A DNA stretch of 64,000 nt from Candidatus Heimdallarchaeota archaeon (GCA_018238155.1 JABCTZ010000003.1:64001-128000); one strand, 5' to 3'; positions 2,919-48,696 are shown, numbered from the stretch's first letter. Notes: generated by a model from the letters alone, not told the origin. Numbers and translations are program-made.

Positions 2919-3184
2919 ATCATGTTGAAGTTACATAAAAGTAACTTATAATAGCCTTTTTTTTCATTTTTTTTTGTGTTGAACATCTTCCCAATAAGAA
3001 AAATGATGGACTGTAACTCTATCGACAAAACGTTGAAAATGGAATTATCTTTCTGAAACAACAATAATTCTAATATATGAGATAAATCATCAAACATAAT
3101 GTTGTTTAGAGAACTTTAGGGGAAGTTCATGTATTGCTTTCTTCAATTATTTTTTAAATAGCTTGAAAAACTGGAGAATAGATT

Positions 3185-30868: not shown

Positions 30869-30877
30869 GATCCCGCC

Positions 30878-31543
30878 TTAATGTGCCATTAATTCTTTAG
30901 CAAGTTTAACAGCACTAATTGCATTCTCTGCAGTACCATCTGCACCTATTTCAGCAACCCAATTCTTTGATACAGGAGCACCACCAAGAAGCACTTTGAA
31001 ACGGTCGCGGATGTTTTGTTTCACTAATTGGTTTATGAGCTTCTTTTGACCAACCATTGTTGTAGTTAGCAAAGCAGAGATGCATATCAAATCAGCATTA
31101 ACCTCTAATGCTTTCTCAATAAAAGCTGTAACAGAAACATCTGCACCCAAATCATAAACTTCAAAACCTTCTGCAGCAAGCATAGAGGCAACTAAGGTTT
31201 TGCCAATATCATGAATATCGCCTTCAATTGTACCAATTACAACAGTTCCTAAAGATCGGGTTTCAACTTCACTAGAAGATAAATGAGGGGTTAAAATTCC
31301 CATAGCTGCTTTCATAGCCTCAGCACTACGCATCAATTCAGGTAAGAAATATTCTCCTTCATCAAACAAGCTACCAACATGGCGAATGGCATCAGAATAA
31401 GCATCAATAACCGTATTTAGATTCAATTTATTAGCTAGAGCTTGATTAGCTAATTCGCTTGCTTTCTCGATATCTCCTTGAACAATCGCTTTTTTACACT
31501 CATCAAAAATTACCAAATGTTTGTTCCACCTTAAATTTCTCAA
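30878..31543 (-). CDS. Corrinoid (B12-binding) protein, MttC/MtbC-like
   Basis: FDEGEYFLPEL, GDIHDIGK, SALLTTT and GGAPV. Confidence 0.92.
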   Translation of the reverse strand: MRNLRWNKHLVIFDECKKAIVQGDIEKASELANQALANKLNLNTVIDAYSDAIRHVGSLFDEGEYFLPELMRSAEAMKAAMGILTPHLSSSEVETRSLGTVVIGTIEGDIHDIGKTLVASMLAAEGFEVYDLGADVSVTAFIEKALEVNADLICISALLTTTMVGQKKLINQLVKQNIRDRFKVLLGGAPVSKNWVAEIGADGTAENAISAVKLAKELMAH

Positions 31544-31608
31544 ACAAAACTATTAAGTTAAAGCATCTGTGATAGTTTACCACAATAGAAATAGGTACCA
31601 ATGCTTAA

Positions 31609-32355
31609 CTATTTAGCTTTCGCTCTCTCAAGATAGTCTTGAACCATATGTTCAACGGAGTGATAGTGAAGAGCAATTGACAATTCTTCAAGAGTTCTAT
31701 ATGCAGCATCTCGAATTTCCTTGTTGGAATCATTTTTGTACACATTATGAAGACGTGGGATAAAGCTTACATCATCAATTTTCCCCATAGCCAATGTAGC
31801 AATAAGTCTAAGTTTATCATCACAGGCAGGTTCAAGACACTTTACTAGCAGATCTTTTGTTTCAGGAGTATCAAACGAGCCGATGATTTCCAATAAACAA
31901 GCTTGAATATCACTTGATTTTTTATTATACAATTCCAAAAGCTTTGGTACAATACTCTCTTCTCTCAAATAAATAACCGTTCCAACAAGAACATTGCGAA
32001 TATCATCATCATCTTCTTTCAACAATAAGGGTAGGATCTCTTCAGACTTTATTTGACCACCTAAGAATCGCAATCCACCTGCAGCATTTCTTCTTGTCTC
32101 GAGATCATTGTCTGTCTTTATTATTTCAAGCAAAGTTGGAAGAATGCCTTTTCCTCCTAAAAGCGAAAGAGACATAACAACCGCTCTTCTAACCTCAACA
32201 ATCGTTTCATCTTTAAGGAGAGCTAATAAAAGAGGAACAGCCGATTTTGTCATATTTCTACCAAGCGCTTCAACTGCTGCTCGTCGCTTGTTGGGGTCAG
32301 AATCTTTAAGCAAATCAATATTCTTAGCAACATTAAAACTTGGCATAATAATCAT
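31609..32355 (-). CDS. HEAT/PBS-lyase repeat protein
   Basis: Repeats of D...[VR]RxAAxxALG. Confidence 0.85.
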   Translation of the reverse strand: MIIMPSFNVAKNIDLLKDSDPNKRRAAVEALGRNMTKSAVPLLLALLKDETIVEVRRAVVMSLSLLGGKGILPTLLEIIKTDNDLETRRNAAGGLRFLGGQIKSEEILPLLLKEDDDDIRNVLVGTVIYLREESIVPKLLELYNKKSSDIQACLLEIIGSFDTPETKDLLVKCLEPACDDKLRLIATLAMGKIDDVSFIPRLHNVYKNDSNKEIRDAAYRTLEELSIALHYHSVEHMVQDYLERAKAK

Positions 32356-32535: not shown

Positions 32536-32817
32536 TTAAGGAAACAGAGGAGGAAAGTCACCCGGTAAATTACCAAACATCTTTACCATAAACACTATTA
32601 TGAATATAACAACAACAATAGAAAGAATAAAAAATAATATTTTAAAAATAGTTGAGGTTTTATTACACTCAGGACAAAGCCATCCTCCTCCTCCACCATC
32701 TCTACTACTTCGATGAAAAGCATGATCTTTACAAATATCCTTTTTACATCTCACACAGATCATCCTACTTTCATTTTCACAAAATTCACATCTATGATTC
32801 GACATTGTAAAATCCAA
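32536..32817 (-). CDS. Small Cys/His zinc-finger protein with C-terminal TM helix
   Basis: CxxC-x7-CxxC-x4-CxxH...CPEC followed by a hydrophobic helix. Confidence 0.7.
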   Translation of the reverse strand: MDFTMSNHRCEFCENESRMICVRCKKDICKDHAFHRSSRDGGGGGWLCPECNKTSTIFKILFFILSIVVVIFIIVFMVKMFGNLPGDFPPLFP

Positions 32818-32954
32818 TTAATAATTAATATCGATGATATTTAAAGATAATTAATTTTAAATCCATATTTCATTATTCAAAAAAATGATTAAAGCATAAT
32901 TGAAAAAAAATTGTTCTGAAGCAATCTTCAAGATATTTCTAATTATAATATATT

Positions 32955-33629
32955 CTATGACATAGTAACACATCTTTCAAAAGTAATAATTAATAGTGGT
33001 TGACCAACATTATTACAGATTATCTTGCGTTCGATAGATGTGTGTATCGTAGAAAGAAAATCTCGTCGTTCTAATTCATCTAATTTATGTGTAATAAAGT
33101 AATACCCATCATCAAGTAAACCTGTGTTGTTGATAATTTGTATTTTATCATTAATCAGAGATGGAATATTTGCAATACAATAATATCTGTCATCTGTAGA
33201 ATTGTAATAAGATAGAATCATACTGGAAATAGATAGTTCAGTTGTATTGAATTGAGTCAAGTTATTATTACTAAAAGCACTAAGAGATGCTGAATAGCTT
33301 AGCTCAAACTCTCTAAGTATTCTTCTCACTTTTGTATCTGCTTCTAATAACATCTCAGATATATTGCGTACAATATCATGACCACTTTTAAATTCAACAT
33401 ATGAATAATAACTTGAAGTAGTGCTAATCTTTTCTAAATCATGGATAATTGATTTTTCTTGTACTGTATCATAATTGTAGCTTATATCAATGCTAGGTGG
33501 AGCAGTACTAAAGTACAATCCCAATGGAATACTAACTGTAGGTACCAATATAATTAGAATAGCCAAAACAATGCCCACATATTTGAGTGGGTGCACTTTT
33601 CTTGTCATAATTACTTCTATGACAATCAT
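32955..33629 (-). CDS. Hypothetical membrane-anchored protein
   Basis: N-terminal TM helix; 224 aa. Confidence 0.6.
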   Translation of the reverse strand: MIVIEVIMTRKVHPLKYVGIVLAILIILVPTVSIPLGLYFSTAPPSIDISYNYDTVQEKSIIHDLEKISTTSSYYSYVEFKSGHDIVRNISEMLLEADTKVRRILREFELSYSASLSAFSNNNLTQFNTTELSISSMILSYYNSTDDRYYCIANIPSLINDKIQIINNTGLLDDGYYFITHKLDELERRDFLSTIHTSIERKIICNNVGQPLLIITFERCVTMS

Positions 33630-33670
33630 ATTTAAAAGGTAATTTAATTAAGGAAATAGAGGATTACTAG

Positions 33671-33986
33671 GAAAATTATTCGTGGTTTATACATTTTCAT
33701 TATGAAAAAGAGAAAAGTAAACTCATTTTTACTACTAACGTTTTTGTTGATGGAAATCAAATAATAACTAAAAAAAAGACGGCAAGAATTTGGCACAGAT
33801 AACTGGCTATTCAACATTAGATTGGGAATTTTCGGAAAAAAAACAGGTGACTTCACATTTACAGAAGTAAAACGGGTAAAAGTTTTCGGAGAATTTGGTG
33901 TGGAACTGACATTCATACCTGATCTTGAACATAAATGGAAGAAGGAACTTGTTTGGAGTGCAGGAAGCGATTTACTAGAGAAATAA
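33671..33986 (+). pseudogene. Startless, frameshifted ORF remnant
   Basis: Two open segments joined at an A8 run (33770-33777); no start codon. Confidence 0.3.
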
Positions 33987-34012
33987 TAGAAACAATTTAC
34001 AAATCAAATATC

Positions 34013-35110
34013 CTATTGCCTTCTTTTATTTTTTAATTCTCGTCTCATAAGCAATAAATCCGTAAACGCTTCTAATCTGGTTTGAAACCCAGCCTCTCCA
34101 GTATGTTCATCCAAAACAAGAGATAAAACCGGCATATCATGTTCTCGACTAACTTGTGGAAAGATACTCCTTGTAATAATCTCTGGCATGCAAGTGAACG
34201 GATAAAGATGGATAATTCCATCCCAGCCTTGTTTTTTATAATTAACAGCATCGCCAAGATTCTGTTGAGTTTCACCACCAACAGTGTGGGGGACATAGGT
34301 CTTTCCCGCACAAATAGCTTTTTCATGATCCATTTTAGCAAAAGGATTTACCTTGTGAGGAAGATCAATAAACTGTCTTAATGAAATAGGTGTTTTGGCT
34401 ATTACTCCAAGATTATTCAAGCTCTTGAAAATATCTAAATTTAAAGAGGGTTCCAAAACAACGTAAATCTCTCCATTAACAATAATTTTCAAAGGCTCTA
34501 AGGTTTTATCAACTTCAACGTTCTCAGAAAACATTTTTGTTATCGTTTTACCTAGCATTCTCAATTTAAACATTCTATCAGTAGCAACTATTTTTTGGAA
34601 TGCTTGTTTAGCAATGCGTTCAGAATCTCCTGTTTCAATTTCGATTGCTCGATATTTACATAAAAGCCTGTCAACTAAATCTGTTAGTCGATTTGTTACC
34701 CACCCATATTGAAAAGCTCTAATTGTTTGGAGGTAGTTTAAACCAACACTAACTTTCTTTGCTTGTCTGATAATATCCAAAGGGCTTTCATAATCAAATT
34801 TAATAAATTTAAAGTCATAACCCAAATCTTCAAGAATAAATTTTTGTGCTTGCCAATAAAACCGAAATCTACAATAACCGCATCCAGCACTCATACCCAA
34901 TTCTGTTGCTCCTCTCTCCAATCCTTCGATAAATGTTCCTAAAGTCATTTTGAAAGGTGTACAAACAAATTCAGGTGAATATCTAGCACCAATTTGAAGA
35001 GTATTCTTACTGGGTTTATTTGGCATGAGAATATCAGTTCGTCCTAACTCACTAAATATTCTTTGAAAGACATATCTAAGGGACCCGAAGGACGGGAATG
35101 TTAACGGCAT
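34013..35110 (-). CDS. 2-hydroxyacyl-CoA dehydratase/CoA-substrate activase-related protein
   Basis: SPEFVCTPFK..LG, GYCRFRFY, GEIYVVLEP, PFTCMPE and DEHTGEAGFQTRLEAF. Confidence 0.85.
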   Translation of the reverse strand: MPLTFPSFGSLRYVFQRIFSELGRTDILMPNKPSKNTLQIGARYSPEFVCTPFKMTLGTFIEGLERGATELGMSAGCGYCRFRFYWQAQKFILEDLGYDFKFIKFDYESPLDIIRQAKKVSVGLNYLQTIRAFQYGWVTNRLTDLVDRLLCKYRAIEIETGDSERIAKQAFQKIVATDRMFKLRMLGKTITKMFSENVEVDKTLEPLKIIVNGEIYVVLEPSLNLDIFKSLNNLGVIAKTPISLRQFIDLPHKVNPFAKMDHEKAICAGKTYVPHTVGGETQQNLGDAVNYKKQGWDGIIHLYPFTCMPEIITRSIFPQVSREHDMPVLSLVLDEHTGEAGFQTRLEAFTDLLLMRRELKNKRRQ

Positions 35111-36101
35111 TTATTTCTTTCCTCCTCTGAAGCATGTCAATAAATGCTTCTAATCTTGTTTTTAATCCTGCTTCTGCAGTCAAATCATCTAAAACAAGCT
35201 GTAATATTTGGATATTGGGCATTCGTTTAGAAAACCTCATAGCCAAATCTCCGACTAAAGAATCAGGACCACAACCAAAAACCATTAAATGAATTATTCC
35301 ATCAACTGACTCTTTCTCAAGAAAATACATTATTGATCCAAGAATTTCTCGCTCAAAATCGAAATAGAGTCTATTCTCTAAGATAGATAATTGTTGATTA
35401 ATAATCGATCTTGGTATCTGTTCAGAAGTAATGACATTAACTCCAAAATTCTTAAGCTTCTTTCTGATATCTAACGAACAGAACTCATCATTAATTACAT
35501 ATGAATGTCCTATTAATGCAATTTTTAGAGGTTTTTCGCCGGGAATTTTTTCCGGTTTAGCATTAAGATGAAAATCATCCCTTGCTTCCCACTCAGTCAA
35601 TGTATCCAAATTAATAATCAAATCTTCATAATGTTGTTTATAGACCTTTATTGCTTTTCTGAAAGCTGTAATGAGTCTGAAAGGATTTTTAGTAAAGATT
35701 AAACCAACCTTGAGTGCTTTGAGAAAGAAAGTTATTTTATTATCTCGACCCTTGGCTATGTTATAATGAGGCATGATAATCGTAGGAAGATCAGGAAACA
35801 TAGAACGTAAAACATCAGCCAAGCCAATAAATTTAGGACAACCCATATCGGTTTTATGTTTGCTCCCAAAACGAGGGATAAAGAGAAAATCAACATCATC
35901 CTTTAGTTCTAAAACATGACCAAAGAAGATTTTAGTTGAATAACAATCCTCGTCAGGTGCAATTGCAATTGCCTTTTCCCTTATCTGTTTATTAGTTAAA
36001 GGTGAAACTACAACTTCAGCTCCTAATTGCTTGAAGAAAGTATCCCACATAGGGAAAAATTTGTAGTAAATCAGTGCACGGGGTATACCCACTCGTTTCA
36101 T
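35076..36101 (-). CDS. Acyl-CoA dehydratase activase-related protein (DUF2229-like)
   Basis: VGIPRAL, CYSTKIFFGH, CPKFIGL, GHSYVIND, FGCGPDS and AGLKTRLEAFIDML. Confidence 0.85.
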   Translation of the reverse strand: MKRVGIPRALIYYKFFPMWDTFFKQLGAEVVVSPLTNKQIREKAIAIAPDEDCYSTKIFFGHVLELKDDVDFLFIPRFGSKHKTDMGCPKFIGLADVLRSMFPDLPTIIMPHYNIAKGRDNKITFFLKALKVGLIFTKNPFRLITAFRKAIKVYKQHYEDLIINLDTLTEWEARDDFHLNAKPEKIPGEKPLKIALIGHSYVINDEFCSLDIRKKLKNFGVNVITSEQIPRSIINQQLSILENRLYFDFEREILGSIMYFLEKESVDGIIHLMVFGCGPDSLVGDLAMRFSKRMPNIQILQLVLDDLTAEAGLKTRLEAFIDMLQRRKEINAVNIPVLRVP

Positions 36102-36390
36102 TGGTATTAATCCTCTTACGGTTTTTTCAAATTATTCTTTAAAATAATGTGCCACATAATTTCAATGGAGTTAAAAAAGGTATTTTATATAATCAAATTC
36201 TTACTAGTACTTGTCATGAGATTTCAAATTAGTTATCCTATAATTAAATCGAAATCAGAAAAAATTTTGTTTTAGTGGAGCAAATGAAGTGCATTATGAA
36301 GTAGCTTTACAATATTCAAACGGTTCAATAGTTGATTTTTTTTATGAATAATTAGGATAGAGAACACTTGGTTAAAAAAAGGGTGAGAAA

Positions 36391-36940
36391 TTGAGCAGAG
36401 AAAGTGAAAGGGAAAAATATCTTGAAACAATTCAACCTTTCATTGGTAAATTTCTAAAATTGTTGCTACAACAGATAATTGGAATGAATCTAAATTTATT
36501 CTCGATTTACTTCAAGAATTAGAGAAAGAGCACCAAGATTTTATTACTCCATTTCTATTTTTATAGAACTCTTACTGTCAATAATTCTGGGGCTGAATTT
36601 TGAACAAGAGGTGTTTCAGATACTCTCAGTTGAAGGATTTGACATAGCACAAAATCTAGTTATTTGTTATAATAATCGCAGAATGGAATTAGATATGATA
36701 GTTTTTCAAGATGAAGAATTGATGGTCATAAGTTGTAGAAATGCTGTAAATGTAAATTGCCTTAGTAGCTTTAAATCAGATATCAAGCAAAAAGCACATA
36801 AGATAGAATATCGAATGCGATTGCTAAATGCAGCTTCTGCTCGACTGTATATCAAAGTGACCAAAGAGAATTATGATCAATTAGTTGAATTCGAAGGAAC
36901 TTGGGTAAATTCGGTAGAAATAATATTTATTGTTATTTAA
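36391..36940 (+). pseudogene. Frameshifted PD-(D/E)XK-like nuclease gene
   Basis: TTG start after GGGTGAG; two frameshifts; C-terminal frame GLNFEQEV...ELDMIV...VISCR has a degenerate ExK motif. Confidence 0.55.
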
Positions 36941-37012: not shown

Positions 37013-37152
37013 GGGCCGTTAGCTCAGCTTGGTAGAGCAATAGGCTCATAAGGCTTGCACTTGCGAGTTCCTGCCTGATGATACCTATTGGTCACTGGTT
37101 CAAGGGATACAAATTGCGATTTGTATCTGAACAAATCCTGTACGGCCCACCA
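37013..37152 (+). tRNA. tRNA with CAU anticodon, probably tRNA-Ile2, with two introns (37051-37082 at 37/38 and 37104-37134 at 58/59) and encoded CCA
   Basis: Spliced form GGGCCGT-TA-GCTC-AGCTTGGTA-GAGC-A-ATAGG-CTCATAA-CCTAT-TGGTC-ACTGG-TTCAAAT-CCTGT-ACGGCCC-ACCA. The GGGCC acceptor and A73 fit archaeal Ile2 better than Met. Confidence 0.93.
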
Positions 37153-37233
37153 TTTTCTTCTTGTTTTGATACAAAATCTGTGTTCTATTTTCATTACTGG
37201 TCGTGTGAGATTGATGGTTGTGTTCCCTTTTTC

Positions 37234-37262
37234 CGCGAATTCAAATCGCGCTGGGCCCACCA
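37234..37262 (+). repeat. tRNA 3'-arm repeat, family 2
   Basis: CGCGAATTCAAATCGCGCTGGGCCCACCA. Confidence 0.75.
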
Positions 37263-37284
37263 AATTCTTACTTTTTATTTTATA

Positions 37285-38361
37285 TCAAGATGTTTCTTTA
37301 ATCCCATCTTTACCGTTTTTATACTTCTTTTCTTCAATGGTAATTTGTTTTTCGAGTTTATTCATTTGTTCAATTGCTAAATTTATATTATCAACTAAAA
37401 CTAATCCATTTGTAAGACACTCTTCAGCACACCATTTCCCTGCAATTATTAAGTAAGGTTTCATAAATTCGGTGATTTTCTTAATCTTTTGGATGTAATT
37501 GTTGATTTGTTTCTTAATTGCATTAAAGATTAATTCTCTACTTTTGTCCCAAATTAATAATGATACAAAAACAATACCTAGGATTATTTTCCATTCATTT
37601 GGTAATGCAGAAACAAAATCATAACCTTTCTTTAGAATATTGACAATTTTATCAATAAACGATATAATAAAAACTAATAATCCCCCAATTATTAATGCTC
37701 CCAATTCAAATGTTAAAATTCCTAATAAGGGGATACTTGTAGCAAGTATTACAAAAGAAGCTGATCCTTGTTGGTAAATACTAACTATTTCACAAGATTC
37801 CTTTGTACCTTTCCATGATTTTACACCATCAAGATCGAGCATATCCTTATCTGTTGTTATTATCGCATGTTTTCCTAATTTCAAGAAAAGAGCTACATAC
37901 TCTACATCTTCTTTATCTCTTTCAGCTATCATAGCTTCTGCTTTTTGATAAGCTACGTCATCATCTAAATTTTGATATGTGATCTTGGTTAAAAATTTGG
38001 AAGCTATAACTTCAATTTCTTTGGTATCTTTATTACAATATTCAGCGATACTTTCAATGTGTTTGTTAATCTCATTTTTTATTTTATCAGGTGCTACACC
38101 TAAAACAAATGGTGATTCAAGTAATTCCAATAGAAACGAATGATTATATTTTACATAGGCTCTAATATGCTTATTTAAAATGCTTGCATCGATAATGATT
38201 TGCAATGATATGTTTTGACCCATTTCCAAAATATTGTCTTCAAAAAAACCTTTGATTTGTTCCATAATACTTAGATCTATGTGTTTTACTATTTCCTTAA
38301 TTATCTCTTTTCTATTGTCAAATTTCTTTCTAATTCGTTCCCAATCCTTTTCGTTAAACAT
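37285..38361 (-). CDS. PIN-domain protein with C-terminal TM helices
   Basis: IIIDASIL, RDKEDVEYVAL and IITTDKDML acidic PIN motifs; hydrophobic C-terminal half. Confidence 0.8.
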   Translation of the reverse strand: MFNEKDWERIRKKFDNRKEIIKEIVKHIDLSIMEQIKGFFEDNILEMGQNISLQIIIDASILNKHIRAYVKYNHSFLLELLESPFVLGVAPDKIKNEINKHIESIAEYCNKDTKEIEVIASKFLTKITYQNLDDDVAYQKAEAMIAERDKEDVEYVALFLKLGKHAIITTDKDMLDLDGVKSWKGTKESCEIVSIYQQGSASFVILATSIPLLGILTFELGALIIGGLLVFIISFIDKIVNILKKGYDFVSALPNEWKIILGIVFVSLLIWDKSRELIFNAIKKQINNYIQKIKKITEFMKPYLIIAGKWCAEECLTNGLVLVDNINLAIEQMNKLEKQITIEEKKYKNGKDGIKETS

Positions 38362-38444
38362 TTTATCTCAAATCCTTTCCCAGTTTTTCTACACATTTCT
38401 AGCATAAAAAACCTTTCGAGATATTACATTCCATAAAATAAGTG

Positions 38445-38478
38445 TTGGTCACTGGTTCAAATCCTGTACAGCCCACCA
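38445..38478 (+). repeat. tRNA 3'-arm repeat, family 1 (33/34 to spliced tRNA)
   Basis: TTGGTCACTGGTTCAAATCCTGTACAGCCCACCA. Confidence 0.95.
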
Positions 38479-38497
38479 CTTCATATTTATGAAGAAA

Positions 38498-38746
38498 CTA
38501 AATATCTGAAATTATTTCTTTAATTTCTGCATGAGAGGGAATTCCCTCAAACTTTATTTCACCATCTACAACAATAGATGGTACTGCTTTAATGTTATAC
38601 TTCTTTGCTAATACAACAGCATCAGCTGATTGATTTAAATTATATTCAATGACCTGACATTTTTCACATATTGCTTCTTTTAGTTGTCTTAATGCTGTTT
38701 GGCAAAGAGAACAACCCGCTGTGAATATCTCAAATTTATGACCCAT
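38498..38746 (-). CDS. Small thioredoxin/glutaredoxin-fold protein
   Basis: CSLC, AKKYNIKAVPSIVVDG and FEGIP. Confidence 0.85.
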   Translation of the reverse strand: MGHKFEIFTAGCSLCQTALRQLKEAICEKCQVIEYNLNQSADAVVLAKKYNIKAVPSIVVDGEIKFEGIPSHAEIKEIISDI

Positions 38747-38847
38747 TAGTGAAAGTCTCCATTATGCTTGGTTACTAAAAGTAACTAAGTTTACATAAGT
38801 ATTTAAATTGGTGGTTTCCAAGTAGAAACAAAGTATTCAGATGGAAA

Positions 38848-39225
38848 GTGATTCCGATTAAAGAGGAAAAAATAATTTGTCCATTATGCAATATTATGAA
38901 TATTGTTAGTAAAAAATGGTCTTTACTTATAGTTAATACAATAGGCAATACTGCAACAATTAGGTTTAGTGAAATAAAGAGAAATCTGCGAACGATAAAT
39001 TCCAAAGTTTTATCTGATAGATTAAAAGAGCTCGTACAAGCAGAGATCATAAACAGGAAATCAAAAGACTCAGTACCACCACATGTTGAATACTCTTTAA
39101 CTGATAAAGGAAAATCATTACGCAAAGCAATAATGCCACTTCTTGATTGGTTTTATTCCTACAATGAGAAAGGAAGAATAACCCCATGCGATATAGCATA
39201 TCAGATTGAAAGGGTTGAGAAATGA
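38848..39225 (+). CDS. HxlR-family winged-helix regulator
   Basis: CP...KKWSLLI, RFSEI, KVLSDRLKEL and VPPHVEYSLT. Confidence 0.92.
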   Translation: MIPIKEEKIICPLCNIMNIVSKKWSLLIVNTIGNTATIRFSEIKRNLRTINSKVLSDRLKELVQAEIINRKSKDSVPPHVEYSLTDKGKSLRKAIMPLLDWFYSYNEKGRITPCDIAYQIERVEK

Positions 39226-39375
39226 AATCACTATCCCTACCCGACGAAAAAAGTATATCATATTTTGGCATGTTGATTTTTCCTAGTAATCATTGAGCAT
39301 TAAATTTCAAAACATTAATAGTATCTTTGTAGATAAAGTCGACTTCATAACTGATCGATTTAAGTAACAATTCTG

Positions 39376-39409
39376 TTGATCACTGCTTCAAATTCTGTAC
39401 GGTCCACCA
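39376..39409 (+). repeat. tRNA 3'-arm repeat, family 1 (30/34)
   Basis: TTGATCACTGCTTCAAATTCTGTACGGTCCACCA. Confidence 0.9.
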
Positions 39410-39421
39410 GTTTTTTCCTTT

Positions 39422-40048
39422 CTAGGTTTTTTGCACAATGTAATCTATTGTGATACTTTGGCATTGTTTCTCATTGTGAACGTAACCAAAGCTTGTTATT
39501 CCTTTGTGAAGTAGTTTTAATCCAGTAAAGAGTTCATCCGCTTCATCAATGTTATAAAAGGAATGAAAAGTATCTTCAAATCCATATTTACCTGCTTTTG
39601 AGATATCTAGCATTTCATTATCGCCAATATCTTTTCCCTCTTTTATGAAAGCTGAATCAGTTGATTGAAAATTAATGTACAGTAAACCACCTTTCTTTAG
39701 CACTCGAAGCATTTCTTTGACCGCTTTTTTAGTACCTGCTTTCGTAAGATGCTCAATCGTGTTATAAGAATATGCGAAACTAAATGACTCATCTTCATAT
39801 GACAATTCTCGTATATCTGCTTTAATTATTTTATAATCAAGGTTATTTTCTTCTGCATATTTTTGTGCTCTCTCTCTCTGAGTATCAGAAATTTCCACTC
39901 CGTGTGCTTCATACCCTCGTTCACCAAAGACTGTTATTTTAGGCTCGGATCCACCAGCACCACAATCCAAAATCCTTTTTTCAAAATCACTTTTTTCTGT
40001 GAATTCCAAAAATCTCTCTATTTCTTGTGGGATAGTAAAAGTAACCAT
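39422..40048 (-). CDS. Class I SAM-dependent methyltransferase
   Basis: ILDCGAGG, ADIREL, SF...YSYNTIEH and RVLKKGG. Confidence 0.9.
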   Translation of the reverse strand: MVTFTIPQEIERFLEFTEKSDFEKRILDCGAGGSEPKITVFGERGYEAHGVEISDTQRERAQKYAEENNLDYKIIKADIRELSYEDESFSFAYSYNTIEHLTKAGTKKAVKEMLRVLKKGGLLYINFQSTDSAFIKEGKDIGDNEMLDISKAGKYGFEDTFHSFYNIDEADELFTGLKLLHKGITSFGYVHNEKQCQSITIDYIVQKT

Positions 40049-40092
40049 AATCCATTATTTAGACTGGTAAATTATTAAATATTTTACAACTC

Positions 40093-40126
40093 TTGAAAAC
40101 TGGTTCAAATCCTGTACGACCCACCA
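40093..40126 (+). repeat. tRNA 3'-arm repeat, family 1 (30/34)
   Basis: TTGAAAACTGGTTCAAATCCTGTACGACCCACCA. Confidence 0.9.
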
Positions 40127-40283
40127 CTTCTTCTATTAATACCGACAAAGATAATCACGTTACAAAAAAAGCAACCGATTTTTTTATATAAAACCTTGAA
40201 ATAGGAAGTTTGTGAATAGTAGCAACTAATTTTTCTCTCTATAATACTGATTATTACAATTCAAACTTCAGAATGCTCTCTGA

Positions 40284-40508
40284 TTACTTAGCTAATTTGA
40301 AAAACTCTTCTTTTGATAATTTGGAATCGTTGATGATTTTTAACAGTAGGCCTTTTCCTAATGTTTCTCCTTTGTGATCTGGAACTACAATTAATCTGCC
40401 GTCTGGGTGTTTTAAAATTACATGACTTCCTTTTCTTCGAGTAACCACAAAACCGATTTTTGTTAAAGTTTTAATAACTTTTGTTGCTGTTAGAGGTTTC
40501 AGTTTCAT
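40284..40508 (-). CDS. hicA: HicA-family toxin
   Basis: L.KIGF...RRKGSHVILKH...VVPDH...LGKGLLLKII. Confidence 0.92.
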   Translation of the reverse strand: MKLKPLTATKVIKTLTKIGFVVTRRKGSHVILKHPDGRLIVVPDHKGETLGKGLLLKIINDSKLSKEEFFKLAK

Positions 40509-40741
40509 TCAATTGGAACCTCTATGAATTGAATGCCTACAAAATCCTTTTGTAAATTTCTTTTGAATTCAGAATCAACAGTTTCCAAATAAAGATCTAC
40601 TGCTTCTTCCATTCTTTGAATTAATTGATTTAGTGATTTTGCTTGTGTATAACAACCTGGCAGTTCTGGTGCAGAAGCAATAAAATAGCCATCTTGATCT
40701 TTTTCGATTAGAATGGTGATTTTCTTCATATCTGTTGTCAT
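40505..40741 (-). CDS. hicB: HicB-family antitoxin (short form)
   Basis: IEKDQDGYFIASAPELPGCYTQA...MEEAVDLYLE; overlaps the hicA start by 4 nt. Confidence 0.9.
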   Translation of the reverse strand: MTTDMKKITILIEKDQDGYFIASAPELPGCYTQAKSLNQLIQRMEEAVDLYLETVDSEFKRNLQKDFVGIQFIEVPIE

Positions 40742-40993
40742 TTCTTTTTTGCTCCTTGATACTATTACCCAAATATAATATATAAATAAGATTATTTCTT
40801 TAGCTAACATTTTTTATCTATTTATGCCTATCTTTACCTAAATGACTTTCAAATTTTTTATGTAGGGTATTTAGAAGAAGTTGGACACTCCTTTCAATCT
40901 TGTTAGCAAATAAAACTGACACTTTCTTTTTCAGATAATGCTGCAAGAGAACTCCCGTCACTTGAGCGCGTGAAGTTTAGTGTTGTTTTCCCT

Positions 40994-41023
40994 TTGGTCA
41001 CTGGTTCAAATCCTGTACACCCA
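40994..41023 (+). repeat. tRNA 3'-arm repeat, family 1 (first 25 nt identical, eroded end)
   Basis: TTGGTCACTGGTTCAAATCCTGTAC-ACCCA. Confidence 0.9.
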
Positions 41024-41254
41024 TGAAATTCTCTCTTGAAAGAGCTATTTTCGAATAATAATTGGTAAAGCTATATGAGCTATAGTTTTATAAAGGATGG
41101 ATAAAAGTCTTCTATTGTATACATTTAATGAAACATTGAGTTAGGAATGAATAAATTTTTGGTAATTAGTAACTTTCAAGTTTGAATTCTCAAATCTTAT
41201 CTTTTAATTTCTTTGCAATATTTAATGTATAACAAAATAACAAGTGAATCAAAA

Positions 41255-41407
41255 ATGATTAACGGCTATAACCGCGAACCAAGAGAAATGCACAAAGTTA
41301 CTTGTGCCGAATGTGGAATTGAGACTGAAGTACCCTTCAAACCTGATGGCGAACGACCTGTTTACTGTCGCGACTGCTACCAAAAGCGCAAACCAAGTAG
41401 ATATTAG
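41255..41407 (+). CDS. CxxC-x17-CxxC zinc-binding protein
   Basis: REMHKVTCAECG...VPFKPDGERPVYCRDCY. Confidence 0.9.
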   Translation: MINGYNREPREMHKVTCAECGIETEVPFKPDGERPVYCRDCYQKRKPSRY

Positions 41408-41501
41408 AATTAACTAATCTACGAATCATTCCTAGTTGAATTATAATTCATTTTATATTTCAAACTAGTTTTTTTTTATTATTAGCTTTAATTTAATACA
41501 A

Positions 41502-41533
41502 GGTTGACTGCTCAAATCGTACTGGGCAAGCCA
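41502..41533 (+). repeat. Degenerate tRNA 3'-arm repeat, family 2-like
   Basis: GGTTGACTGCTCAAATCGTACTGGGCAAGCCA; sits 24 nt from a minus-strand stop like the other copies. Confidence 0.55.
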
Positions 41534-41556
41534 GTTTACTTTTGATTCTCCAAAAG

Positions 41557-42150
41557 TCAAAAATCTGTCTTTAAAGAAAATCGTTTATCAATCCACTTCT
41601 TGATATCTTCTGCCGAATCAGATTCGGGATAATATCCTTTAGGATCACCATCTTTGTTTCTTGCTTCTTCGGCTTTATCAGAGACATCTTCAACTTTTAT
41701 CAAATTCCCTTCTTCAAAATCAAATTTTAGTACAGTTTGAAAAGAAGTAGGGCTTGGATATCCCATATGAACGTATTCCTCTAGAATAGGTTTATTACCT
41801 AATAACAATGATCCCGTGAATGGGAGTTTCAAGTATACATCTTTGTAATAATATCTGAAACCCAGACCACGTAATCCCCCTGGATTATATTCTTTTGTTA
41901 TCTTTAAAGGGGCAGTATTATTTATTATTGGAGGTTTTATTCCATCAGCTGTTCGTACCCAAAATCCTTCCATAAACAATTTATTATCCTTTATTTCATA
42001 TCTCATGATATACCCCCTCCAACAGCCTGTAGATGCAGACCTAGTTTTAATTTCAAACGTTTCCGCAGTATCTAATTCGGAGCCTGTGATTCCCACAATC
42101 ATTAATTGATTTCCTTCATAATAGAATAGATCTGAAGCTTGTTGTGTCAT
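41557..42150 (-). CDS. Conserved hypothetical protein
   Basis: MTQQASD...STGCWRGY...FTGSLLLG...YVHMG pattern of a bacterial/archaeal uncharacterised family. Confidence 0.75.
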   Translation of the reverse strand: MTQQASDLFYYEGNQLMIVGITGSELDTAETFEIKTRSASTGCWRGYIMRYEIKDNKLFMEGFWVRTADGIKPPIINNTAPLKITKEYNPGGLRGLGFRYYYKDVYLKLPFTGSLLLGNKPILEEYVHMGYPSPTSFQTVLKFDFEEGNLIKVEDVSDKAEEARNKDGDPKGYYPESDSAEDIKKWIDKRFSLKTDF

Positions 42151-42248
42151 GATTTAATACCAGTTCTTATTTATGTTTAATTCTCCTTAAATTTACCGAT
42201 TTTCGCAGATAAAACACGCACAGATTCACTAGATTCTTTCTTTATTTC

Positions 42249-43382
42249 TCAGAAAATAAATATCTCTGTCAGAACATCTGTCCATGTTCTTCCAAATTTA
42301 GTATTGAGGTGTGCTATTGCTGATATGGTATTTTCTGATCCTTTTATTAGCAAATTAGTTGGAACCCAAACACAAATACTAACTGTTTTTTGTCCTTCAA
42401 AATTGTATATAGCTGTCCAAATTCCTTCTCCAATGATATGACTTGTATTATCCTTTATCTGCAGGTCAAAGCTTCTGAATTCTTGGTGCCAGTGCCCTGG
42501 ATTGTTAATTGTTACATGTATAATAATTGAAGTGGTATTAATTTCTCCATGCAAAAAGAAACTGTTTGAATAACCTTCTTTATAATTTACATCAACGACT
42601 CCAAAACTGCTTCCCCAATTAGCGTTGGTTGTATCAATAATCGGGACTAGAATAATGATGAAGAGAATGAATCCTGGCATTACAAAATGCTTTTGTTTCC
42701 TTATCTTTTTGAAGGTGATTGCAAAGAAATTGCGAACCCTCTTTTCTTTATCCTCCACCTTCTCTGCTTCCTTTTCCTCTTTACGTTTGAGTAAACCAAA
42801 TGTTGTTACCATTAGAAAAATAATTACTGCACCAACAAGTAGTATGTAACGTCCCATCTCTCCTTGGAAGTAATAGAATATCCCTCCAATGAATGGTATT
42901 TTTCCAATAATTTTACCCACAACCCTGCTTTCATGGATGTTCAATTCATCTACTCGTCCAGTAGGAATCTCAATTACAAAAACATTATTAGAATTCGGGT
43001 TGTCTCCTTTTGTAGAAAACCAAAAATCTCCTGTTTTATTGTCTTGATAAACTCTCGTTACTCGGTGGACTATCGGAATATTCTCTTCTGTGTGGTTGAT
43101 ATAATTAAAAACTATTACATCACCTACTTTTATTTCTGAAGAATCAACTCCTCGTACTATCAACATATCTTTTCGAATGTCGCCAAATTTTCCTCCTTTG
43201 TCAAGTCTTCTTGAACCGTAGTACGTAGGCTCCATTGATTCGGAAGTTACTACTACGAGAGGAGAATTTGTGTTAAGTGCTAAACAAAGTACTTGATTGA
43301 AACTTAGAATGCCTCCCACACAAATTATTATTAATGCACTAATTGCAATAACATCTTTCCGCCAGCTCGTTTTCTTAGACAT
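42249..43382 (-). CDS. Signal peptidase I (archaeal/ER-type S26B) with C-terminal extension
   Basis: VVVTSESMEP, VGDVIVF, PIVHRV, TKGDN and VVGK...IPFIG. Confidence 0.9.
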   Translation of the reverse strand: MSKKTSWRKDVIAISALIIICVGGILSFNQVLCLALNTNSPLVVVTSESMEPTYYGSRRLDKGGKFGDIRKDMLIVRGVDSSEIKVGDVIVFNYINHTEENIPIVHRVTRVYQDNKTGDFWFSTKGDNPNSNNVFVIEIPTGRVDELNIHESRVVGKIIGKIPFIGGIFYYFQGEMGRYILLVGAVIIFLMVTTFGLLKRKEEKEAEKVEDKEKRVRNFFAITFKKIRKQKHFVMPGFILFIIILVPIIDTTNANWGSSFGVVDVNYKEGYSNSFFLHGEINTTSIIIHVTINNPGHWHQEFRSFDLQIKDNTSHIIGEGIWTAIYNFEGQKTVSICVWVPTNLLIKGSENTISAIAHLNTKFGRTWTDVLTEIFIF

Positions 43383-43467
43383 TTATCTTTCTCTTCCCTT
43401 ATTTTTCTACGTAGCTTTCTCTAATTTGGATAAAGTATTTTCCTTTATATTAAATATTAGAATCAAG

Positions 43468-43497
43468 TTGTGTGTTCAAATCGCGCTGGATTCACCA
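43468..43497 (+). repeat. tRNA 3'-arm repeat, family 2
   Basis: TTGTGTGTTCAAATCGCGCTGGATTCACCA; shares TTCAAATCGCGCTGG with 37240-37254. Confidence 0.75.
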
Positions 43498-43604
43498 CTC
43501 CTTCTCTCTAGATTTCACAAAACATAGTATAATTAAGTAAGAGGTTGATTTTTTGTTCCTTTGTAAACTGTTAGATTTTAATTACTTACTTTCTATTCTA
43601 AATT

Positions 43605-43802
43605 ATGAACAAAGTAACTCTTCAATCAACTATTACTTGTCCGGATTGTGGATTCAAGAAAGAGGAAACAATGTCAACAAATTATTGTCAGTTCAAATAT
43701 AGATGTACAAATTGTGGTTCTATCCTCTCCCCTAAATCTGATGATTGTTGTGTCTATTGTTCCTTTGGAACAGAGAAATGTCCTCCTTTACAAGGAAAAT
43801 AA
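43605..43802 (+). CDS. GDCCVxC-domain small Cys-rich protein
   Basis: ITCPDCG...ETM...CQ..Y.C..CG..L.PK..DCCVYCSFG...CPP.Q. Confidence 0.9.
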   Translation: MNKVTLQSTITCPDCGFKKEETMSTNYCQFKYRCTNCGSILSPKSDDCCVYCSFGTEKCPPLQGK

Positions 43803-43984
43803 TGATGATGGATTAGTATGTCTTCTTTGGTTGCGAGTCGTATTTCGACTACCGATTTTTTATTCTTTATTATGTTATATTTTCGGTTTGACCTTTCCTC
43901 GTAGGTGGTTTGGACATCTAATCTTAGTGCTGTTGAAAACAATAAAAAAAAAAGAATTTCCTGCCAATTATAATTAGCAAAAAA

Positions 43985-44213
43985 AATCAGCTTATTTTTT
44001 CTTTCCTATCCAAGATGTTAAAAATTGATGCCATAATTCCTGATACTACTGATAATGGTAGAATATCTGTTAATGACTCCCATAATAGGGTGGTTGTTGC
44101 TTGGCCTACTGCTAAATTTACCCCTTATATTACTCCAATTATTCCTAATATAAGGAATACTACAGTATAGTTGAAAATATTATGGATGCTTTCTTTTTGT
44201 TTTCTGGTTGCAT
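43985..44213 (-). pseudogene. Degraded small membrane-protein gene
   Basis: Hydrophobic reading frame interrupted by a stop and a frameshift. Confidence 0.3.
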
Positions 44214-44249
44214 TTTAAATTTTCCAGCGTATAATTACATCATTTATTA

Positions 44250-45038
44250 TTAAATTAACTGCACCAGTTGCCCGATTCCTGTTGCAGGTGGAACAAAATA
44301 GATGGTAAAATTATCAGGCACAATTGCTAAAGCAGATAAGTACTCGTAATAGCTTTCAGATAGCTCATATGATTTGAAATTACAAACAAGAATAATTTTC
44401 CTTTTATTGTAAGCGCACTGAATGGCTTTAACAAACTCAATAACCTGTGAACTAGTTTTGCATGCTGATCCTAGCATCAGACCTTGTAAATTTTCATTAG
44501 CTAAAATCTCTACTGCCCTTTCAGGAGAGGAAACTTCACCAAACATTAGAGAAACTTTGAATCCTTCTGATCCTAACCTTTCAGTTAGGAAATTACGCAT
44601 TTTGTTTGTTACCCTAGTGATGAGTTTAGGACTGGGAGGTAATTGCTTCTCTCTATCCTTAGAAGATACAACCCACTTTGGCTCATAAATGAATAACGCT
44701 TGTTTAATGAATTCATTAGGAATATCTTTGAACATTTCAGCACAACGATCTTTTAATAATTGAGCAATTTCATGTAGAGAATGTTCAGAAAATTCTTTGA
44801 ATGTTTCTCCCATCATTATTACATTGAAAGGTAGAGCTTCTGGATGAATTTTCTGAAGAGCAATGATTTCTTTGATTTTCTTATTTGCTGTTTGTAAATC
44901 ATCTTTTATTTCAGGATGACCTATAAGGATTCCAGAGGCATTTGCTTGATAGAGATGCTTACAAGTTATCTTTCCTGTTTGCGCTTCTTCAACAACATCG
45001 AAATTCTGTGCCACAACTTTGAAGATTGCCATAACCAT
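44250..45038 (-). CDS. Circularly permuted triosephosphate-isomerase homologue
   Basis: AQN...TG, IGHPE, YEPKW and GLMLGSA, then RKIILVCNFKSY...FVPP (normally N-terminal) at the C-terminus. Confidence 0.75.
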   Translation of the reverse strand: MVMAIFKVVAQNFDVVEEAQTGKITCKHLYQANASGILIGHPEIKDDLQTANKKIKEIIALQKIHPEALPFNVIMMGETFKEFSEHSLHEIAQLLKDRCAEMFKDIPNEFIKQALFIYEPKWVVSSKDREKQLPPSPKLITRVTNKMRNFLTERLGSEGFKVSLMFGEVSSPERAVEILANENLQGLMLGSACKTSSQVIEFVKAIQCAYNKRKIILVCNFKSYELSESYYEYLSALAIVPDNFTIYFVPPATGIGQLVQLI

Positions 45039-45404
45039 TTGAAACCGTTTACAATTGTTCAGTGAGTATAGAACTCAAACAAGTATTTTGAAAGTTTTCA
45101 TTTAAAATACTCATACGTAATATAATAAAAAAATAGACTATAAAAAGAAGTAAGATGAAGATACAATATAAATAGTAGAAAATAATATCCTATAATCAAG
45201 AAATCTAGTTGAGATATAATCACTTATGGTTATTTTTCATTCTAGTTTTTTTTCTATTTTTATTTATTAAATCATTTTTCAGCAGAAGCTATAAAACACA
45301 TTACACTTACCAAAAAAAACGTTTTGAGAAATATGTATTTCAAGCACACTCCTCAGGTAAATTGATATTTACCCTCTCATATTTGATTAATTACCCACAT
45401 TTCC

Positions 45405-45545
45405 TTAATCAGTACCTGTATTTCCTGGTGGATTTGGATCTATTGTTGGATCTCCAAGTCCTTCCTGGAGTGCCCTACTACCTGCTATTAGAGACGATAG
45501 TAGTAACATAGCAATGCCTATTAATTTCGGATTGATTTTTTTCAC
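45405..45545 (-). CDS. 46-aa secreted peptide (not in ORF track)
   Basis: AAGGTG RBS and GTG start; MKKINPKLIGIAMLLLSSLIAGSRALQEGLGDPTIDPNPPGNTGTD. Confidence 0.6.
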   Translation of the reverse strand: MKKINPKLIGIAMLLLSSLIAGSRALQEGLGDPTIDPNPPGNTGTD

Positions 45546-45919
45546 GTTTTAACACCTTAGTTTTTTTTAGAGTTTTTGCCAAACCTTTCGTTGTGATTAA
45601 TTATTGTTTAAGTGATGTGTTTTGGCAATTTGTGAGTAATTAAACTCTAAGCTTCTAATTGACAAACGCTAAAAATAGTTTTAAGGTTTTAATTCACCTT
45701 CGTTTAAAACGACGAAAATAGCTTTTTAAATCCCTAAGAATCGAAAATAAAGCTCTTAGATAGATGTGTGAAAAAAGCCTTCATTTTTCACTAGGAATTA
45801 GGTCTATACTTTAGATAGTTATTTAAGTAAATGAGCTTACTATTGGAATAATTTGCTTGATTTGCTGATTAATTTTCTACTAATTATAGTGATAATTAAT
45901 TAAATTATGTTGATTTACA

Positions 45920-47832: not shown

Positions 47833-48696
47833 ATGAAAATCGGTTTTGGTTTGGAACCTATTCGAGGGTTATCTATGGATCTTATTGTTCGTCTTATGAA
47901 GATGACGCTTATTCAGCACTTTGAATTTAATTGGCGCATAATTCCTAAAGTGCAGTTGGTTATTAAATCGCTGGGAAGGTCAACTACCACTTTTCATTTG
48001 CCAATTTTCAATAGAGATCGATTTGATTTTTCCACAAAAAGTGATACTTTCGAAGTCCAAATGCAAGAAGTGACTTCGTTTATTAATAGAAGAAAAAAGG
48101 ATATCAATATCTCTTATACTCTTGCTCATTTTCCCGAAGATCCTAAGGGTTCATATGATTTAATGTTTAGCCGGCTCGCACAGATAGATACTCCAATTGT
48201 GCTTGAAAATGTTGTCGGACCAACTGACGATGAGTTTTTAGATTTCTATTTGCAAGCCAAGGATTATTTAGGCAGTCATTTAGCAGGTCATTGTTTAGAT
48301 ATTTCCCATCGTTACATCAATAATTGGAAAACTTGGTTAGATCTTCCCAAAGAATTAGAGAAAGATATTGAATATGTTCACATTTCAGATTGCACAAAAA
48401 CGGAGGATTTACATCTTCCCCTTGGTCTTGGAGAAATGCCATTTAACGTTTTTTTTGATTACCTCAAGAAAATTCGATATAATGGTGTCATTATGCAAGA
48501 ATTAAAACCAAATGGCGATCAAGCAGAAGAGATTATGGCCTCTGGTTTACATTGTGCTAAACCATTTAGTAAAATAAAATATTTTCGGATGTTAATTCGA
48601 CGTGCAATTCTTCGTCCAATTTTGCGATACCGCCAAAAAGATTTCGAAGATTTATTGGATAAAACTGCTGAAGAAATAGGTTTTGATTTTGTTTAA
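47833..48696 (+). CDS. Xylose-isomerase/AP-endonuclease-2-like TIM-barrel protein
   Basis: FHLP, VLEN, CLDISH, VHISD, HLPLGLG and QE metal ligands. Confidence 0.85.
   Translation: MKIGFGLEPIRGLSMDLIVRLMKMTLIQHFEFNWRIIPKVQLVIKSLGRSTTTFHLPIFNRDRFDFSTKSDTFEVQMQEVTSFINRRKKDINISYTLAHFPEDPKGSYDLMFSRLAQIDTPIVLENVVGPTDDEFLDFYLQAKDYLGSHLAGHCLDISHRYINNWKTWLDLPKELEKDIEYVHISDCTKTEDLHLPLGLGEMPFNVFFDYLKKIRYNGVIMQELKPNGDQAEEIMASGLHCAKPFSKIKYFRMLIRRAILRPILRYRQKDFEDLLDKTAEEIGFDFV

Follow-up and report, generated by a model that had tools for sequence, protein, structure and literature searches.

Behind one tRNA gene of an Asgard archaeon, copies of the tRNA's own 3' end recur in series with one or two genes between them, which raises the question of how such a string arises and what moves the genes within it. 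The locus lies at positions 37,013 to 43,802 of a 64,000-nucleotide stretch from Candidatus Heimdallarchaeota archaeon (the window; G000:C21:64001-128000), and coordinates below refer to this window unless a contig is given. The host genome (G000) is a metagenome-assembled genome (MAG) of 4.08 Mb and 33% GC, 90.7% complete with 5.9% contamination, and was set beside 10 other genomes of its genus, 30 genomes outside the genus and 9 metagenome contigs. The window probably holds one representative of a genus-wide, hypervariable array in Heimdallarchaeia that is anchored on tRNA(CAU) and whose cassettes are moved in trans.

Under this reading, modules of about 0.5-4 kb (median 1.1 kb, with one or two genes) would enter by site-specific insertion, either at the tRNA gene's 3' part or at a copy of this part already in place. 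Each insertion would add a copy of the last 22-39 nucleotides (nt) of the tRNA, from the variable loop or T-loop through CCA, along with a T-rich trailer, so that cassettes would come to stand in a row, separated from one another by the tRNA tail in its present and former versions. Having no recombinase of their own, the cassettes would be moved in trans, swapped between species and shuffled. The anatomy, distribution and exchange of the array can be read directly from the genomes compared, and the chemistry and enzyme of insertion are proposed from them.

The tRNA(CAU) gene and the copies of its tail

Seven copies of the tRNA 3' end lie downstream of tRNA(CAU), all on the strand of the tRNA. 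Four are of type A, which corresponds to the spliced 3' part of the resident tRNA(CAU), and three are of type B, defined by TTCAAATCGCGCTGGGCCCACCA.

37013-37152, plus strand: tRNA(CAU), anchor of the array, with introns at 37052-37083 (anticodon loop) and 37104-37134 (T-loop)
37197-37262, plus strand: repeat B1, a type-B tRNA 3' half consisting of CTGGTCGTGTG, a 32-nt insert, then TTCAAATCGCGCTGGGCCCACCA at 37240-37262
38444-38478, plus strand: repeat A1, with 1 mismatch in 34 against the spliced tRNA 3' part
39375-39409, plus strand: repeat A2, with 4 mismatches
40099-40126, plus strand: repeat A3, of which 27-28 nt are clearly tRNA-derived
40994-41020, plus strand: repeat A4, truncated before the acceptor strand and without CCA, with a type-B T-stem piece and insert-like sequence just before it
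41500-41533, plus strand: degenerate type-B repeat, at nhmmer E 0.6 when taken alone and supported by cassette alignment
43467-43497, plus strand: repeat B3, type B, the last clear copy

The original prediction, made from the window alone, had described seven such copies as a single class of repeat; all seven are present, and they divide into the two classes above. The very weak eighth copy that it had entertained at 42211-42231 falls away, as about 12 of 22 bases match the tRNA tail there, which is not significant. A 25-mer from the tRNA 3' end has 4 matches in the window and 0 in 100 shuffles, and a scan of the 4.08-Mb genome for the tail finds type-A and type-B copies at the tRNA(CAU) locus only. 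The degenerate copy at 41500-41533 stands in register with the strong repeats that end a homologous ~490-nt cassette in eight other copies.

The anchor itself is easily overlooked. No tRNA is reported in the window by default ARAGORN or Rfam, and ARAGORN in intron mode fused the 5' half of the tRNA to the copy at 38445, a wrong join. Splicing out both introns in silico gives a 77-nt tRNA(CAU) cloverleaf that ARAGORN accepts. The T-loop intron (37104-37134) interrupts the middle of the repeated segment, which resembles an attachment (att) site, and no type-A copy has an intron. Orthologous tRNAs in G005, G007, G008 and G010 have no intron or an anticodon-loop intron only, so that the T-loop intron is seen in G000 alone; it would fit the idea of introns shielding tRNA genes against insertion.

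The tRNA(CAU) of G003 is a complete one of type B, its D-loop interrupted by an intron. Upstream of it lie orthologues of window genes 30001-32355, and the type-A tRNAs of G007 and G010 are flanked by these same upstream genes. Because the same genes flank both, types A and B are the tails of two alleles at one orthologous tRNA locus; their acceptor stems differ at pairs 6:67 and 7:66 only, with G010 intermediate. The array copies are earlier and foreign versions of the tail of tRNA(CAU) itself. The type-A copies of G000 have the CCTGT T-stem specific to this host, so they either originated or became homogenised within its lineage.

The insert of B1 lies between T-stem and T-loop, and an insert-bearing copy is also found in G005 and in metagenome contigs. 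An insert of about 30 nt (…GGTTGTKTTCCC…) is conserved in the type-B 3' halves at 37197-37262, L053:3520-3586, L073:1032-1099 and L078:100-170, and a piece of it occurs upstream of the truncated copy at 40994. It is probably a former T-arm intron carried along with the displaced tail.

The 5' side of the tRNA has been rearranged too, because a block at 32536-36940, with two DUF2229 CoA-enzyme-activase-like genes, parts the tRNA from gene 31609-32355 in G000 but not in G003, G007 or G010, where the orthologue of that gene directly precedes the tRNA. The end of the block is formed by one further feature, of which a full-length homologue lies just upstream of tRNA(CAU) in G005 and G008:

36611-36940, plus strand: C-terminal remnant (109 of about 650 amino acids) of a NERD/PD-(D/E)xK-like protein, NERD being a standard gene of the Cas1-like elements discussed below

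Cassettes and cargo of the window

Between and beyond the repeats the window carries the following cargo.

37285-38361, minus strand: PIN_2-domain protein, 358 amino acids, the cassette gene after B1
38498-39271, minus strand: two-gene cassette, with a thioredoxin-like protein of 82 amino acids (38498-38746) and an open reading frame of 116 amino acids without known function (38775-39125)
39422-40048, minus strand: S-adenosylmethionine-dependent methyltransferase, 208 amino acids, a cassette gene present in 8 arrays
40284-40810, minus strand: HicA (40284-40508) / HicB (40505-40810) toxin-antitoxin cassette
41028-41499, plus strand: ~490-nt cassette with a treble-clef zinc-finger protein of 50 amino acids (41255-41407), in nearly every array of the genus
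41557-42150, minus strand: protein of 197 amino acids belonging to no family, a cassette gene with a split homologue in the G010 array
42249-43382, minus strand: membrane protein, 377 amino acids, with a weak MFS match
43498-45900, no strand assigned: probable distal part of the island, with an approximate boundary, holding small open reading frames and a TIM-like gene (44250-45038); conserved flank begins at 45920

Minus-strand genes of the window stop close to the CCA of the preceding repeat, at gaps of 22, 19, 12 and 23 nt, as had been noticed at the outset. The regular unit of gene plus att site drawn from this spacing holds within the window and fails as a rule of the system: over the intervals of the genus 28 genes lie on the minus and 30 on the plus strand, many of them 100-200 nt from the preceding repeat.

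Several cassettes have features of their own. A strongly conserved non-coding stretch precedes the zinc-finger gene in its cassette (41028-41499), a 9-nt inverted pair (TAGGAATGA / TCATTCCTA) stands on either side of the gene, and a 94% identical copy of the protein is encoded at G000:C1:93230-93373 without repeats nearby. Residues 6-205 of the TIM-like protein align to positions 55-244 of the Pfam TIM profile, and a copy of its gene with 85% nucleotide identity lies in G009, 2.7 kb from a type-B repeat. PADLOC identifies in the cargo only HicA and a partial mad2-like match; the latter falls on the methyltransferase (E 8e-14, profile positions 281-400 of 492) and hints at a defence-linked methylase.

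Distribution across the genus

Arrays with type-A and type-B repeats are found in 9 of the 11 genomes of the genus and on the 9 metagenome contigs. Outside G000, type B forms clusters in 7 of the 10 congeneric genomes and in 0 of the 30 from beyond the genus, type-A copies are confined to the same array contigs as type B, and six of the nine metagenome contigs with type B have at least 2 copies in the fetched stretch. The 46 inter-repeat intervals at all loci have a median of 1.09 kb and range from 14 to 3750 nt. Every strong or moderate copy, at every locus, is on the tRNA strand.

The extent of the array varies widely. That of G008 spans 17.7 kb, G010 has few cassettes behind its tRNA, bordered mostly by weak repeat copies, and G007 represents the empty site, its tRNA being directly followed by the orthologue of window gene 47833-48696. 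Cargo in the other arrays includes Schlafen/AlbA_2, a WD40-Roc-PNP protein, Mrr, a beta-lactamase fold, amine oxidase and creatininase, among others. The WD40-Roc-PNP protein is encoded at L019:11220-14864 in the G008 array; its 1214 amino acids comprise WD40 repeats, a Roc/Ras-type GTPase and a PNP_UDP_1 phosphorylase domain, an NLR-like layout.

That all of this should be an artefact of assembly or binning is scarcely credible. It would draw on the MAG origin of the genomes and the shortness of several array contigs, but the window sits in a 228-kb contig, the G008 and G010 arrays in contigs of 43 and 256 kb with diverged core flanks, and the same architecture has been assembled independently in many samples.

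Exchange of cassettes between species

Cassettes pass between species, and they are gained, lost and reordered at the repeats. A single core locus groups the genomes into the clades {G000, G001}, {G002, G003, then G008, then G010} and {G004, G005}; between clades, nucleotide identity at this one locus is 68-70%, as against 84-96% for cassettes. The methyltransferase cassette (39422-40048) is 95% identical in nucleotides to its copies in G004, G006 and G008 and 87% identical to that in G010, and it is found in at least 5 different neighbour contexts. At fourfold sites its identity is 93% between G000 and G004 or G008 and 96% between G004 and G008, compared with 35-47% (saturated) for flanking core genes. 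The PIN_2 gene (37285-38361) shares 78.5% of amino acids (global alignment) and 83.7% of nucleotides with its copy in G008, where the same kind of B repeat precedes it, and shows 68% identity at fourfold sites; 38890-39281 is 91% identical to an array contig of G002.

The arrays of close relatives differ as well: G004 and G005 are 95% identical in core DNA yet share only two short array tracts at 88% nucleotide identity or more, both differently placed. Conversely, G004 and G008, with core DNA 69% identical, share a tract at 95.5% that runs from its left repeat to 44 nt short of the next and thus corresponds to a whole unit. Of the ends of cross-clade tracts of high identity in arrays, 46 of 78 are no more than 30 nt from a repeat, where 6.4 would be expected, and 0 of 5000 permutations reach 46. 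The figure is to be read with caution, because the ends do not count as independent events and alignments are drawn towards the repeats by their mutual similarity. Comparison across relatives had been proposed as the test of the original prediction, and repeat-bounded cassettes indeed come, go, change order and are exchanged, with G007 empty.

The prediction had left two outcomes side by side, a platform for mini-cassettes mobilised in trans and a graveyard. In the latter, large elements inserted in series would each have been deleted down to the att-proximal gene, to be inherited vertically as immobile remains. Decay is visible in the degenerate or truncated copies (40994-41020, 41500-41533), in repeat pairs 14-19 nt apart in relatives and in the element-gene remnant at 36611-36940, and in Prochlorococcus the accepted interpretation of the islands is one of scattered partial tRNAs with decayed elements (bioRxiv 10.1101/2020.12.28.424599). 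Vertical descent is nevertheless at odds with synonymous-site identities of cassettes between species far above those of core genes, with the whole unit common to G004 and G008, and with an identical cassette in different neighbourhoods; nor were integrase fragments found in G000 by searches with PF00589 and PF16795. Mini-cassettes mobilised in trans are therefore favoured, and a purely vertical graveyard is disfavoured as improbable in view of the arrays of relatives, the empty site and the lack of an integrase in cis.

A further possibility dispenses with a dedicated enzyme altogether: the 35-nt repeats and shared genes would serve as short homologies for homologous recombination or gene conversion with imported DNA. 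Many tract ends do lie inside repeats, a whole tRNA allele has been swapped between lineages, and the 95% methyltransferase tract in the window covers approximately the coding sequence only, as it begins 20 nt past CCA and stops 46-50 nt before the next repeat, hence at coding-sequence borders and not at repeats. The origin of the first tRNA-tail copies, their strict same-strand order, the restriction of arrays to positions behind tRNA genes and the autonomous elements with the same repeats are all left unexplained, and as a complete account this one is doubtful.

The confinement of that tract to coding sequence also weighs against trans-mobilised insertion as proposed here, since it suggests gene conversion rather than whole-cassette insertion in the window; gene conversion therefore also acts at the window array. 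Other observations pull in the same direction. The 5' edge of the repeat varies (CTGCTGGTC, GCTGGTC and TCAAATC classes), for which identity blocks of att type are a better fit than a target duplication of fixed, ruler-set length. B1 lies between two type-A copies, so that repeat order is no simple chronology. No circular or excised form of a cassette was observed in the data, which consist of MAGs and metagenome contigs; gaps in the MAGs could hide a virus or plasmid with a classical integrase, and some small array contigs could be mis-binned.

Candidate enzymes

A tyrosine integrase, the agent originally proposed, is unsupported as the responsible enzyme. The array cargo of the window includes no recombinase, and no tyrosine or serine recombinase is found in any array. 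Within G000, PF00589 matches are on C8 and C19 only, with none at or near arrays. A weak PF00589 match of 525 amino acids on C19 was rejected as a source, as it is without flanking tRNA-type repeats. PF16795 (SSV-type) and PF00239 (serine recombinase) have no match in G000, which leaves split integrase halves undetected there, although very short N-terminal stubs would escape the search.

A classical tyrosine integrase could still act from a tRNA(CAU)-targeting virus or plasmid that the MAGs failed to capture, in which case the cassettes would be satellites or remnants with an attP-like tail. The form of the repeats, which duplicate a tRNA 3' part directly, vary in their 5' edge and in one class start in the T-loop, is typical of the att sites of tyrosine integrases (Williams 2002, as cited in PMC8813620), foreign-type tails borne on elements would account for the mixture of A and B and for the turnover of tRNA alleles, and mobile elements with tyrosine recombinases are known to build arrays by re-using one site (PMC6563490). 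Against this, no array contig of the genus has a match to PF00589 or PF16795, and sequences of type A or B occur only in arrays among the 11 genomes. In IMG/VR, scans for the two att sites returned nothing for type B and a single match, at 40% GC, for type A. The autonomous elements that abut tRNA genes in G000, moreover, have a Cas1-fold gene and no tyrosine recombinase. Such an integrase, acting unseen, is accordingly judged unlikely, though it retains appreciable weight.

These Cas1-fold proteins are the only integrase-like genes tied to tRNA-tail repeats in G000. The type example is a 627-residue protein (C13:165603-167480) encoded close behind tRNA-Val(GAC), after one gene of about 190 amino acids, an open reading frame that ends 2 nt beyond the tRNA. 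Pfam detects only an N-terminal winged helix-turn-helix (wHTH) in it, a profile search of PDB sequences likewise returns the wHTH domain only, and across G000 Pfam Cas1 finds canonical CRISPR Cas1 on C15 only; two homologues of the protein exceed the Pfam Cas1 cut-off. One His and one Asp..Glu pair are conserved without exception across 27 sequences. In hhalign against one Cas1 sequence the probability is low (6.6%), with the invariant H, D and E and a conserved upstream acidic residue aligned to the Cas1 catalytic motifs. An AlphaFold (AF2) model (predicted local distance difference test 87, predicted template modelling score 0.84) retrieves only Cas1 and casposase structures in the top 50, the best matches including 4n06 (E 1e-7) and the Methanosarcina casposase 6opm (E 2e-5).

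In a collection of 5.8 billion proteins all named members of the family are from Heimdallarchaeota, most matches being unnamed, and within the genus the family is multi-copy, with up to 16 matches per genome. The gene belongs to a conserved module, composed of NERD (~700 amino acids), ~230 amino acids, LAGLIDADG (~550), PD-(D/E)xK (~250), ~200 amino acids, the Cas1-like protein and ~190 amino acids, which adjoins tRNA-Val, tRNA-Ala, tRNA-Leu or tRNA-Pro in elements of 8-11 kb. All three close Cas1-like paralogues in G000 are in tRNA-abutting elements, and wherever a distal copy was found (C43, C6, L087) the borders are 26-47-nt copies of the tail of the element's own tRNA.

G000:C43:1-13400 (L080): Cas1-fold element behind tRNA-Ala(GGC), with tail copies at 3020 and 128
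G000:C6:39858-47965 (L081): Cas1-fold element between tRNA-Leu(TAG) and a 42/47-identical tail copy
G000:C13:165003-180948 (L061): tRNA-Val(GAC), Cas1-fold element, Rad51-like gene, then an array with at least 4 tails of a different tRNA-Val allele, up to the contig end

The orphan array at C13:175525-180797 parallels the two classes at tRNA(CAU), as its repeats are the tail of another tRNA-Val(GAC) allele (L092). Fragments of the ~190-residue element gene stand right after two repeats in L061. In L087 a Cas1-fold element is followed by a repeat, a 0.85-kb ribbon-helix-helix (RHH)/PIN cassette and another repeat, a layout that places an autonomous element and a mini-cassette in one array. At tRNA(CAU) itself, the NERD gene of a Cas1-like element abuts the 5' side of the tRNA in G005, where the whole module can be made out; of that module, NERD alone was recognised in G008.

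The Heimdall-specific family of wHTH/Zn-ribbon/Cas1-fold proteins on tRNA-abutting elements is thus put forward tentatively, as a quite possible but less than probable source of the enzyme for the array cassettes. A more specific proposal, in which a Cas1-fold integrase would insert kilobase gene modules at the tRNA 3' part and duplicate the tail, is distinctly speculative and on balance unlikely; the tRNA body would correspond to a CRISPR leader, the tail to the repeat and the genes to spacers, the system would stand mechanistically between casposons and CRISPR, and the tRNA(CAU) array would be non-autonomous and served in trans. The link to Cas1 is weakened by three negative results: no tRNA(CAU) array contains a Cas1-like gene, the nearby one (G005:C29) lying on the 5' side of the tRNA; no terminal inverted repeats occur at three ends of Cas1-like elements; and the window cassette genes were not found beside the repeats of other tRNAs in G000. 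The variable 5' edge of the repeats weighs against the link too. The LAGLIDADG and PD-(D/E)xK genes of the module are alternative or additional actors.

Comparison with known systems

Integration hotspots anchored on tRNA genes are known, and the array is a variant of these. Like a classical tRNA-targeted island, it shows an intact tRNA followed by its 3' part as a direct repeat, with occupied and empty sites among relatives; unlike one, it holds no integrase gene. Tandem elements behind tRNA genes are described from archaeal mobile genetic elements (PMC6563490) and, with scattered partial tRNAs, from the tycheposon islands of Prochlorococcus (bioRxiv 10.1101/2020.12.28.424599), and elements at tRNA genes of Heimdallarchaeum have been described without such arrays (PMC8813620). 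No published description was found, in a literature coverage that is incomplete, of dense arrays of ~1-kb integrase-less cassettes fenced by tRNA tails.

Tycheposon islands share with the array a hypervariable location behind a tRNA, partial tRNA copies both between elements and scattered, accessory and defence cargo, and newer elements that push older ones inward. Theirs, however, are elements of several kb with a tyrosine recombinase, and fragmented integrases are left in the islands, whereas the Asgard array has ~1-kb units, a repeat per 0.8-1.1 kb and no integrase or fragment that could be found. The hallmark of tycheposons, a deep-branching tyrosine recombinase with replication genes, is missing, there being no tyrosine recombinase in or near the arrays.

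The original prediction likened the locus to an integron, a comparison that is loose. Both have a fixed platform, small and mostly single-gene cassettes without a recombinase of their own, site-like repeats at the borders and exchange between hosts. The analogy fails on integrase, attC and cassette orientation. Integrons keep IntI next to the attI platform, while no integrase adjoins the array; their borders are attC sites, while by sequence the repeats here are the 3' 22-39 nt of tRNA(CAU) alleles; and their promoterless cassettes share one orientation, while the 46 intervals of the array hold genes in either direction. Because genes lie on both strands, no single platform promoter can serve all cassettes. 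The anchor, furthermore, is a functional tRNA gene.

Archaeal 'gene capture' by SSV-type integrases was reportedly described by She et al. in 2001. Such tandem elements and captured genes (PMC7253208, PMC8371274) resemble the array in that one tRNA site is re-used and captured genes stay in the chromosome, but they leave split integrase halves at the borders, of which none is detectable here by PF16795.

Casposases are known to use tRNA 3'-end targets (Aciduliprofundum, Methanosarcina) and to integrate in tandem in vitro (PMC9939771). A Cas1-family enzyme, a site at the tRNA 3' end and direct repeats at the flanks are common to casposons and the Cas1-fold elements. Casposons differ in having PolB, terminal inverted repeats and target duplications of 14-15 bp; the Cas1-fold elements instead combine a wHTH/Zn-ribbon-fused Cas1-like gene with LAGLIDADG, PD-(D/E)xK and NERD genes, and have 26-47-nt repeats and no inverted repeats. 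No family B DNA polymerase is among the called genes of seven Cas1-like loci, where no dedicated search for one was made. The tRNA(CAU) array contains neither a Cas1-family integrase nor any of the Cas1-like element genes. Asgard genomes encode very diverse Cas1 homologues 'possibly associated with novel MGE' (mobile genetic elements; Makarova et al. 2020 as summarised in PMC8730458), and these diverged homologues, as far as that summary describes them, probably include the Cas1-fold family found here.

Biological significance

Asgard genomes are large and gene-rich and contain much imported DNA, for which the routes of import are poorly known. The tRNA(CAU) locus provides one concrete route, along which single-gene modules build up and are handed from species to species much more quickly than the genomes diverge. 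The modules carried include toxin-antitoxin pairs, PIN and Schlafen/AlbA nucleases, methyltransferases, NTPase-repeat proteins and small metabolic enzymes. The array also preserves a fossil series of former tRNA tails, intron-bearing ones among them, and so bears on the old idea that introns protect tRNA genes from integration. Should the Cas1-fold proteins indeed prove to be the enzymes, the array would offer a present-day analogue of an intermediate stage between casposons and CRISPR arrays.

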